DNA from: a virus | Taxonomy: Duplodnaviria; Heunggongvirae; Uroviricota; Caudoviricetes | Direction: 5' to 3' (one strand) | DNA: 43,570 bases | IMG/VR virus record: IMGVR_UViG_2522572023_000011 | Shown here: positions 3,001 through 6,000 of the stretch, in pieces | How the letters are laid out: each line of letters begins with the position of its first letter | Numbering within the stretch: position 1 is the first letter of the stretch | Position numbers: made by a program

Positions 3001-6000
3001 AAACAATGATTCTGTTTCCTAACCATCAAGTGTATATGCTGGCTCAATTACTCAATATCTATGGGTTGAGTTCTACCCAAAGTGGCTCTGTAGTCGCTTC
3101 TTCTTACAGTATGTTCAGGTGTTGCAGGCACAGTTGTGGAGCGTAGATGTGTTGTTGGTTTACCATGCTCTGGTACATAAAAAACGCCAGTGCCATGGTA
3201 ACCTGATATAGAAACGTTAATTCCGCGACGTTCAAACTCGGCATAGACGTGTTCTGCTAAAGAACTCTTTTGACCAAATAATGCCCTAGCCAACCAGCCG
3301 TTATTCATATTTGCGGATTTCTCTATTTCATCAGGAGAGAAGTCTTTGTTTTTTAATATGTTGGCTGAGTTACAGGATGTTAATCTGATATCATCAATCT
3401 CATGAAGATTATGTTGAACAATGCGGTCGACAATATCTGTCGGCGATAAAAATTCATCTCCACACTTAAGAAGTGGTAGACCAGCAGAACCATCCCCAGA
3501 CAGATAAATTTTTTTGTATTTTCCTGGTGTTAAATCATCTGGCAGGATGGTTTTCATCTCTGTCGCTGTAATACTTATAGCTGCAGCAGCAACAACATCG
3601 CTATTACTTGATTGTAGATGGCTTTTATTTGCTCCAGGATATGTAAACTCCATTTTCCTTTCATCAAAATCTTGTTTTGTAGCATCATTCAGGAATAATA
3701 AATCATACGGTTTTTTCCCCGTTGTGACTCTTGAAACATTTTGGCCAAGAATATTAAGAGTATAGTCATTAACGGATTTCATTCCTAAAAAAACAAGTAA
3801 TCCTTCTTTCTCTTGCGCTTTTTCGATTGTTCTCCCTGCTAAAGTTATTGGGATGGATTGAGATTGTTTTGTCGGAACTGATACGCTGGCGCTAATAGGT
3901 AGTAGGGTTCTTATGCTAAACATACAACCTCTTTCTTAATTTTCGAACCTGTTTAGGATTCTGTGTAAATTCAAAATAAACCTGTCTGAACATTCCTAAC
4001 AAACATCCACCTGACATGACAACAAAAACCGGAGCCGGACTCCGGTTTTTGTGAAGCTGTCGGCTATTTCATTCCGCCAATATTTTCCCACGTCCCGTCA
4101 GCACGCAGGATTTGCAGCGGTCTTACCACGCACTGTATCTGCTTTTTATCCGCATCCAGTATCACCACCTGTGTGATTACCCTGTCCTGCTCCGGGATAA
4201 TGCCATTCTCATCTGACTCCAGAATGTCTGCCGGTCCCAGTCGCAGCTGTGCTGTAAGTAACTCCCCGTGTTCACGGTCATCATGCTTTCCGCAACCACA
4301 CAGACGCTGCATAAGTTTTTTTAGTATGTTCATGTCATTCTCCTGTTTGAACCGCCCCGGGAATCCTGGAGACTAAACTTCCTGAGAAAGAGGTAAACAG
4401 GATGACTAAAAATACTCGTTTTTCCCCTGAAGTCCGTCAACGGGCAGTCCGTATGGTTCTGGAAAGTCAGGGCGAATATGACTCACAATGGGCGACAATT
4501 TGTTCCATTGCTCCAAAGATTGGCTGTACGCCGGAGACTCTGCGTGTCTGGGTTCGCCAGCATGAGCGGGATACCGGGGGCGGTGATGGAGGGCTCACCA
4601 CCGCTGAACGTCAGCGTCTGAAAGAGCTGGAGCGTGAAAATCGTGAACTGCGCCGCAGTAACGATATCCTTCGCCAGGCTTCCGCTTATTTTGCGAAGGC
4701 GGAGTTCGACCGCCTCTGGAAAAAATGATGCCACTGCTGGATAAGCTGCGTGAGCAGTACGGGGTCGGACCGCTATGCAGCGAACTGCATATTGCCCCGT
4801 CAACGTATTACCACTGTCAGCAACAGCGACATCATCCGGATAAACGCAGTGCCCGTGCGCAGCGCGATGACTGGCTGAAGAAAGAGATACAGCGCGTATA
4901 CGATGAAAATCACAAGGTATACGGTGTGCGTAAAGTCTGGCGTCAGTTGTTACGGGAAGGTATCAGAGTGGCCAGATGCACTGTGGCACGTCTCATGGCG
5001 GTTATGGGACTTGCCGGTGTTCTCCGGGGTAAAAAGGTCCGTACGACCATCAGCCGGAAAGCCGTTGCCGCAGGCGACCGCGTAAACCGTCAGTTCGTGG
5101 CAGAACGACCTGACCAGCTGTGGGTGGCTGATTTTACTTACGTCAGCACATGGCAGGGCTTCGTCTATGTGGCGTTCATCATTGATGTGTTTGCCGGATA
5201 CATTGTGGGGTGGCGGGTCTCATCGTCCATGGAGACGACATTCGTGCTGGATGCACTGGAGCAGGCGTTATGGGCCCGTCGACCGTCCGGCACGGTCCAT
5301 CACAGTGATAAAGGTTCTCAGTATGTATCGCTGGCCTACACACAGCGGCTTAAGGAAGCCGGATTACTGGCATCAACAGGAAGTACAGGCGACTCGTATG
5401 ACAACGCGATGGCGGAGAGCATCAATGGTCTTTACAAAGCGGAGGTAATACACCGTAAGAGCTGGAAAAACCGTGCAGAAGTGGAACTGGCCACACTCAC
5501 GTGGGTGGACTGGTATAACAATCGACGATTGCTGGAAAGGCTGGGCCATACTCCTCCGGCAGAAGCAGAAAAAGCTTATTATGCTTCCATCGGAAACGAT
5601 GATCTGGCAGCCTGAGTTCACAGATAAAACACTCTCCAGGAAACCCGGGGCGGTTCAGTTCTGCCTGTATCACTGCCCACTTCATCCAGCCCCTTAACAT
5701 CCTGCCACGGCCCGTCACCAAACCTGACCTGCAAATGCTGAAACAGCCCCTGAACCTGTGTGGCATCTTTGGGGTCAAGAAAGGTCAGTCCGGTGATGAG
5801 TGCGCCATCTGTATCCGGGAACCAGCCATTGCTGTTTGTCTCAATAATGCTCGCCGGCCCCAGACGAAAACGGATTTGTGTCTCCCCCGGGTCGCCCTTC
5901 GGTCCCTGAGGTCCGGTTGCCCCCACCGGGCCAGCCGCACCTGTTTCTCCTTTCGGTCCCTGTGGGCCTGCCGGGCCTGCCGCACCGGTATCTCCCTTTG

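Follow-up and report, generated by a model that had tools for sequence, protein, structure and literature searches.

A simple IS629 insertion at the 3' end of a tail-fibre gene in an ssrA–ypjA prophage of Escherichia coli O145:H28

Insertion of IS629, an insertion sequence (IS) of the IS3 family, into the prophages of enterohaemorrhagic Escherichia coli (EHEC) is a textbook route of genome diversification; elements of this family move by copy-out/paste-in transposition. According to the survey by Rump et al. (2011, PMC3271280), IS629 duplicates 3–4 bp at its target, 62% of its copies lie in prophages and its subtypes diverge from one another by 4–5%. In E. coli O157:H7 strain Sakai, prophage Sp17 is severely degraded (PMC2669165), whilst in both O145 strains treated by Cooper et al. 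(2014, PMC3893438) IS629 is the most prevalent IS; Table S2 of the latter paper lists a prophage of strain RM13516 as 'Prophage 11, ssrA-ypjA, 43,445 bp, espS, nleG'. Here we describe the viral record IMGVR_UViG_2522572023_000011 from IMG/VR, a stretch of 43,570 nucleotides referred to throughout as the window, which is the lambdoid prophage lying between ssrA and ypjA in E. coli O145:H28 strain RM12761, which comes from ice cream in Belgium, and in RM13516, its clinical counterpart. A complete copy of IS629 is found at the 3' end of the tail-fibre gene (stf) of this prophage, and we regard it as highly probable that the element integrated into the last stf codons in the O145:H28 lineage that gave rise to RM12761 and RM13516, duplicating the trinucleotide GTT in the process.

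Two queries tie the window to these strains. Positions 4148–4547, which span the left IS junction, and an IS-free query running from ssrA to stf both match the RM12761 and RM13516 chromosomes at 100%, and the RM12761 annotation from 3,278,575 onwards agrees with the open reading frames (ORFs) of the window. The order of the locus is smpB, ssrA, the lambdoid prophage and then ypjA. Both strains are isolates from the Belgian ice-cream outbreak of 2007. RefSeq already carries the insertion, as an IS3-family transposase with a joined coding sequence at 4402–5615 labelled 'programmed frameshift'; the insertion is real but ordinary, and already annotated in a published genome.

The element and its target duplication are made up as follows (window coordinates, strand, feature and, in brackets, source).

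4348–5657, plus strand: complete IS629 (IS3 family), 1310 bp (100% identity to annotated IS629 copies)
4348–4372, plus strand: left terminal inverted repeat, IRL, starting 5'-TG (inverted-repeat search)
5633–5657, plus strand: right terminal inverted repeat, IRR, ending CA-3' (inverted-repeat search)
4402–4728, plus strand: orfA, 108 amino acids (aa), with an HTH_Tnp_1 domain (ORF call, Pfam)
4725–5615, plus strand: orfB, 296 aa, with HTH_21 and rve (DDE integrase core) domains (ORF call, Pfam)
4683–4799, plus strand: ALIL pseudoknot for −1 programmed frameshifting (Rfam RF01497)
4345–4347, no strand: target-site duplication GTT, left copy (direct reading, empty-site comparison)
5658–5660, no strand: target-site duplication GTT, right copy (direct reading, empty-site comparison)

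Read directly, the element starts with TGAACCGCCCCGGG (TGAACC...) at 4348 and ends with CCCGGGGCGGTTCA (...GGTTCA) at 5657, exactly where a preliminary description of the window had placed a 1310-bp IS3-family element. Plasmid copies annotated 'IS629 transposase OrfA/OrfB' match it at 100% identity and, because that match runs the full length from base 1 to base 1310, both boundaries are fixed independently of the locus; alignment to an IS629 reference, which the same description had recommended, left them unchanged. Against the IS1203-type IS629 copy of O157 Sakai the identity is 96.1% (51–52 differences), a divergence that falls inside the published range for IS629 subtypes. The terminal inverted repeats of 25 nt are imperfect, 23 of the 25 positions being complementary (92%). 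Both ORFs are intact, as had also been claimed, and overlap at an A-run, GGAAAAAATGATG, with orfB in the −1 frame; orfB matches Pfam rve_3 in addition to the domains listed above, and the ALIL pseudoknot, which follows the overlap, scores 120.2 bits (gathering score 50) over the full Rfam model, 1–117. In its length and identity, its TG...CA repeats, its two-ORF frameshift layout and a duplication within the 3–4 bp range, the element is an isoform of IS629. With coding capacity and ends both intact, it is putatively competent for transposition.

That the insertion is a simple one, with a 3-bp duplication, is well supported by comparison with uninterrupted loci, for which queries were built by removing the IS and one GTT in silico. 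A 4.4-kb IS-free query extending from ssrA to stf gives a single uninterrupted match at the same chromosomal locus of other O145 genomes, with identities of 99.7% for FWSEC0002, 99.5% for RM8988-C1 and its relatives and 99.0% for RM13514/RM12581. Over its flanks the window has 99.9% identity with its IS-free orthologues at ssrA, and around 100 genomes hold the ssrA–stf stretch in the empty-site state. A shorter, 1.2-kb junction query finds one-piece matches across many EHEC genomes, with a median of 12 places in each: the module formed by stf and the downstream 89-aa gene occurs at 7,614 places in 719 genomes, and the uninterrupted junction is present in 289 phage records, most of them Stx-converting phages. 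Wherever orthologous and paralogous empty sites were read base by base in flank alignments, only one GTT was seen. Because the flanks are contiguous, with a single GTT, at the orthologous ssrA-linked sites of the O145 genomes read in this way, the insertion is simple, and the GTT on either side of the IS, proposed earlier as a target duplication on the basis of the window alone, is confirmed as such.

The insertion also appears to be recent, a well-supported reading since its junctions are restricted to one lineage. In a survey of 5,426 complete genomes, the left junction gave a single unbroken match only to RM12761, RM13516 and RM12367-C1 (the last with a 1-bp difference), the right junction only to RM12761, RM13516 and UTME-1, and the two together only to the outbreak pair RM12761 and RM13516. 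The IS itself shows no mismatches to a second IS629 in the window (over 381 bp), to the copy in RM12367-C1 or to the plasmid copies. Could the insertion instead be old and inherited, with its IS-free O145 relatives produced by repeated precise excision promoted by the IS-excision enhancer (IEE) of EHEC? IEE does promote transposase-dependent excision of IS629, more than 30% of E. coli assemblies carry it (PMC9943667), and two other genomes carry IS629 at this site or within 1 bp of it. We nevertheless judge this very unlikely, given that the site is empty in the roughly 100 ssrA–stf genomes and in the phage records, that both junctions are confined to a single outbreak pair and that the other occupied sites differ either in IS subtype (by 51 nt) or in the position of the junction, and so represent separate events.

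The sheer repetition of the module raises a further possibility, namely that homologous recombination with another lambdoid prophage, one in which IS629 already occupied this position, brought in the IS-bearing junction; UTME-1, where a diverged copy of the module is interrupted by an IS at this very site, could be read in the same way. Yet no other genome in the collection has the exact junction and IS subtype at another prophage, the UTME-1 insertion has a duplication of 4 bp and an IS differing at 51 positions, and the window flanks match the orthologous ssrA loci almost perfectly, so that we give import even less credence than an old insertion. A recent, simple insertion, as the preliminary description had suggested, is the reading that we retain.

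The consequences of this insertion for the tail fibre can be read directly from the gene into which it fell.

5618–6967, minus strand: chimeric tail-fibre gene stf, with phage_tail_N, collagen repeats and Phage_fiber_C (ORF call, Pfam)

RefSeq gives the chimeric fibre as an intact coding sequence at 5618–6961 (WP_051651003.1). The chimeric protein is 449 aa long and its domain layout is that of a lambdoid side tail fibre, with phage_tail_N at residues 3–135 (E = 2e-69), Collagen (E = 5e-18) and Phage_fiber_C at residues 365–428 (full profile 1–64, E = 6e-36). The reading frame runs into the IS, which, as had been noticed from the sequence, supplies the last 12 codons: positions 5618–5656, the 12 codons and the stop, are IS sequence, and the IS also contributes the third base of the preceding Thr codon, giving a C-terminus of ...GSDTGRT-EPPRVSWRVFYL. 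When the IS and one GTT are removed in silico stf ends ...GSDTGRTGE, the restored terminus that had been predicted, and all seven uninterrupted comparators end ...GRTGE. The fibre has lost its final Gly-Glu and gained 12 IS-encoded residues (two replaced, ten added). The C-terminus is therefore changed, as had been proposed, but the change is mild and leaves the Phage_fiber_C domain untouched. The preliminary description erred in one detail, in that the restored stf stop does not overlap the start of the 89-aa gene: the TGA at 4337–4335 and the ATG at 4333–4331 are separated by one base (GAATGAcATGAAC; GAA-TGA-c-ATG), and RefSeq coordinates at uninterrupted loci show an identical 1-nt gap between stop and start.

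Beyond the IS, on the side towards ssrA, lie the following features.

4064–4333, minus strand: stand-alone Phage_fiber_C gene, 89 aa (Pfam, E = 5.3e-36)
4022–4052, minus strand: intrinsic-terminator-like hairpin, a 14-bp stem followed by UUUUUGUUG (U-tract) (RNA folding)
3048–3923, minus strand: cargo gene, 291 aa, named 'secretion protein EspS' or 'hypothetical protein' in relatives (annotation)
2173–2823, plus strand: nleG7, a type III effector gene (Pfam T3SS_NleG, E = 4.8e-48; annotation)

The 89-aa protein is 38.7% identical to residues 366–427 of stf (E = 7e-13) and its gene is a paralogue of the stf C-terminus, not cargo. In its native setting this gene begins 1 nt past the stf stop. 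That junction is now split by 1.3 kb of IS lying in antisense orientation, as a result of which translational coupling from stf to the 89-aa gene would be lost and the late transcripts reaching the 89-aa gene would probably be reduced. The AGGAG Shine-Dalgarno sequence of the 89-aa gene (4340–4344) is retained; base 4344 abuts the left GTT and lies 4 nt from position 4348.

The hairpin lies 12 nt past the stop of the 89-aa gene and ahead of the effector genes. It has a folding energy of −26.1 kcal/mol (z = −3.75) and was found by separate folding, the consensus terminator scan not having listed 4022–4052. Between the 89-aa and 291-aa genes, and overlapping the hairpin, RefSeq places a 'tail assembly protein' pseudogene fragment of 67 bp (3997–4063, minus strand), probably what is left of a tfa-like gene that effector cargo has displaced. 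The 291-aa gene is found beyond the hairpin on the same strand as the 89-aa gene, and its product has no match in Pfam. The nleG7 gene is on the strand opposite to the late operon. Eight nucleotides upstream of its ATG, at window position 2165, an A-run in the ribosome-binding region reads AAAAAA, one A fewer than the AAAAAAA of RM12367-C1 and FWSEC0002.

This arrangement bears on the proposal, made in the preliminary description, that the insertion separates the downstream cargo genes from late transcription. That proposal is weak because the cargo already stands behind a terminator or on the other strand: the gene next to the IS is the fibre-domain paralogue, the hairpin precedes the effector genes, nleG7 is transcribed in the opposite direction and the prophage was in any case already defective (see below). 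For the effector genes past the terminator, the insertion would be expected to have little or no consequence.

A different kind of effect would follow if the insertion had been retained for its regulatory value, with a promoter in IS629 driving, without recourse to late transcription, either the 89-aa gene or the effector genes. The ends of IS3-family elements can hold partial outward promoter elements, and the Shine-Dalgarno sequence of the 89-aa gene is intact, adjoining the left GTT 4 nt from the first base of the IS. As the 89-aa gene lies past IRL, however, any such promoter would have to direct leftward transcription, antisense to the transposase, and a consensus scan of the minus strand over 4348–4500 found no sigma-70 consensus site. 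An outward IS promoter towards the 89-aa gene was rejected on the strength of that scan and, for the effector genes, the strong hairpin would intervene. We rate retention for a regulatory effect as very unlikely, no more probable than import of the junction.

Some points count against parts of this account. In lambdoid phages, late transcription that has been modified by Q passes through terminators and, if it occurs here, such terminator-resistant transcription may reach the 89-aa gene unhindered by the IS; the functional consequences set out here are, moreover, ones that we infer from the layout of the locus. The word 'recent' rests on the presence or absence of the junctions and on the identity of IS copies, and with precise IS629 excision promoted by IEE known to occur in EHEC (PMC9943667), some of the empty sites could be secondary. 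Among the comparisons made, nothing contradicts the insertion itself.

The state of the remainder of the prophage puts these effects into context, and here a second copy of the element is important.

43190–43570, plus strand: second IS629, in the same orientation and cut by the end of the window (381 bp, identical to the first copy; continues in the full record)

This copy truncates the replication gene O and is flanked by GCC on the left and GTT on the right, without a target duplication; a simple insertion is seen for the copy at 4348–5657 and not for the copy at 43190. In the full record the second IS629 ends at position 44499 of the extracted locus and is followed by about 250 bp, the attR copy of the ssrA 3' end and ypjA. 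Because nothing else stands between the IS and ypjA, the int/xis/cI/N region is gone; the missing early region, in whose place the second IS629 stands, extends from these genes to part of O. In addition, the portal gene (20010–23080, minus strand) is frameshifted according to the RefSeq annotation. The prophage was thus already defective before the fibre insertion and, because of this, the change in the fibre has little meaning for the phage's own infectivity, and little or no consequence for phage viability would be expected. In the nin region of the window, the opposite strand holds two adjacent genes (37936–39707, plus strand), one of 296 aa and one of 275 aa, neither with a match in Pfam; RM13514 has a single 590-aa gene where the window has this pair. 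The two genes may be moron or defence cargo.

With two copies of IS629 in direct orientation at the ends of the prophage body, the pair appears poised for deletion. It would provide a substrate for the loss of about 39 kb of phage genes, leaving the nleG7 and EspS-like cargo beside ssrA, and the predicted product of recombination between the two elements would read: 89-aa gene, one IS629, GTTCATCATT..., attR, ypjA.

A locus of this general form is found in RM12367-C1, an O145 strain from creek water, where ssrA is followed by DinI, nleG7, the 291-aa gene, the 89-aa gene, one IS629 and a truncated ypjA. The single IS629 (5202–6511 of the extracted locus) replaces the entire prophage body, and the locus bears the signature of IS–IS recombination: an arrangement of this kind would be expected if an IS629 at the stf site had recombined with another at the far end, with the phage body lost and the effectors kept. 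Its left junction, CCTGTTC followed by the IS, is one base to the right of that in the window, and on the right the IS is followed by GGTTCCAGTTACC..., exactly the sequence that follows the ypjA-side IS629 of RM13514 (37636–38946 of the extracted locus). A shared origin for the RM12367-C1 and window insertions was considered and is not supported: single-nucleotide polymorphisms across 4.3 kb of flank are star-like and show no closer relationship of RM12367-C1 to the window than is seen for FWSEC0002, which lacks the IS, the left junction is off by 1 bp and the right flank is a ypjA junction of the RM13514 type.

UTME-1 (2891–4200 of the extracted locus) also carries IS629 at the same position, in the diverged copy of the module mentioned above. 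Here the IS belongs to the IS1203-type subtype, with 51 differences from the window copy, and the duplication is of 4 bp (GTTC), the locus reading CCTGTTC, the IS and then GTTCTGCC. The insertion yields the same chimeric C-terminal tail on the fibre and is independent of that in the window. Further IS629 copies lie within a few hundred base pairs of the site in Sakai Sp17, strain 155, SJ7 and 2011C-4251. In strain 155 the element is inside the 89-aa gene, with a TCC duplication, whilst in SJ7 and 2011C-4251 it is found about 40 bp past the stf stop and is joined to a truncated integrase. The queries used for these neighbouring copies detect the same orientation only, so no orientation bias is claimed for them. 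Counting the window, UTME-1 and RM12367-C1, there have been at least two, and probably three, independent insertions at one position to within 1 bp.

Does IS629 favour the sequence at this site? We collected IS629 flanks from IMG/VR contigs, 125 distinct on the right and 122 distinct on the left. On the right, G is found at +5 in 69 of the 125 (55%) against a background of 0.22 (P ~2e-15, calculated for a set of 129 flanks) and is depleted at +4; on the left, C is found at −5 in 50 of the 122 (41%) and at −1 in 52 (43%), and A at −2. The earlier, smaller survey, based on 21 target-site duplications and 47 sites, reported no pattern (Rump et al. 2011, PMC3271280). When a weight matrix built from the flanks was applied to IS-free prophage positions, the stf site ranked in the top 37% if the duplication is taken as GTT, the top 51% for GTTC and the top 20% for TTC. 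Because the matrix places the site no higher than this, primary-sequence preference fails to explain its repeated use and was rejected as the cause.

Taken alone, the insertion in the window is of little importance, being one of about 19 copies of IS629 in a published and annotated outbreak genome. Within the complete genomes surveyed, its junction is confined to the lineage of the Belgian O145:H28 outbreak and could serve as a typing marker, and the direct IS629 pair predicts a 39-kb deletion that would strip away the prophage whilst sparing the EspS-like gene and nleG7. That one site has been hit repeatedly hints at some local preference for insertion, which went undetected in published surveys of 21–47 sites. 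What is left, and is only mildly interesting, is this repeated use of the site, together with its connection to the IS-mediated loss of the phage body and retention of effectors. It is conceivable, though we put it forward only tentatively, that the boundary between fibre and effector cargo in EHEC lambdoid prophages is a recurrent landing site for IS629 and that IS–IS recombination is a repeated route by which the phage body is shed and type III effectors are kept beside ssrA.

How does the locus compare with systems already described? As an element, the window copy resembles the IS629/IS1203 copies of O157:H7 in its length of 1310 bp, its inverted repeats, its orfA/orfB frameshift and its 3–4 bp duplication, and those copies, 62% of which are in prophages, are likewise associated with adjacent deletions (PMC3271280). 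It differs from the IS1203-like copies of Sakai Sp17 and UTME-1 at 51–52 nucleotides (96.1% identity), and its host is O145:H28 rather than O157:H7. Within O145, the 'Prophage 15' of RM13514 (Cooper et al. 2014) is similar in that it shares the DinI-nleG7-291aa-89aa-stf-lom-J end, with 99.0% identity to the window once the IS is removed, and likewise ends in an IS629 on the ypjA side; unlike the window, it has an uninterrupted stf, a different head module and other flanks around that right-hand IS629, namely an N6-methyltransferase gene on one side and a truncated ypjA on the other. Sakai Sp17 shares with the window its location at ssrA, a module of effectors, 89-aa gene and stf 3' end, and an IS629, oriented as it is here, within the 3' part of stf. 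In Sp17, however, the IS lies 149 bp further into stf, is of the IS1203 type and has no target duplication, and it abuts a partial ISEc8 where the tail and head genes have been deleted, marking it as the outcome of a different event.

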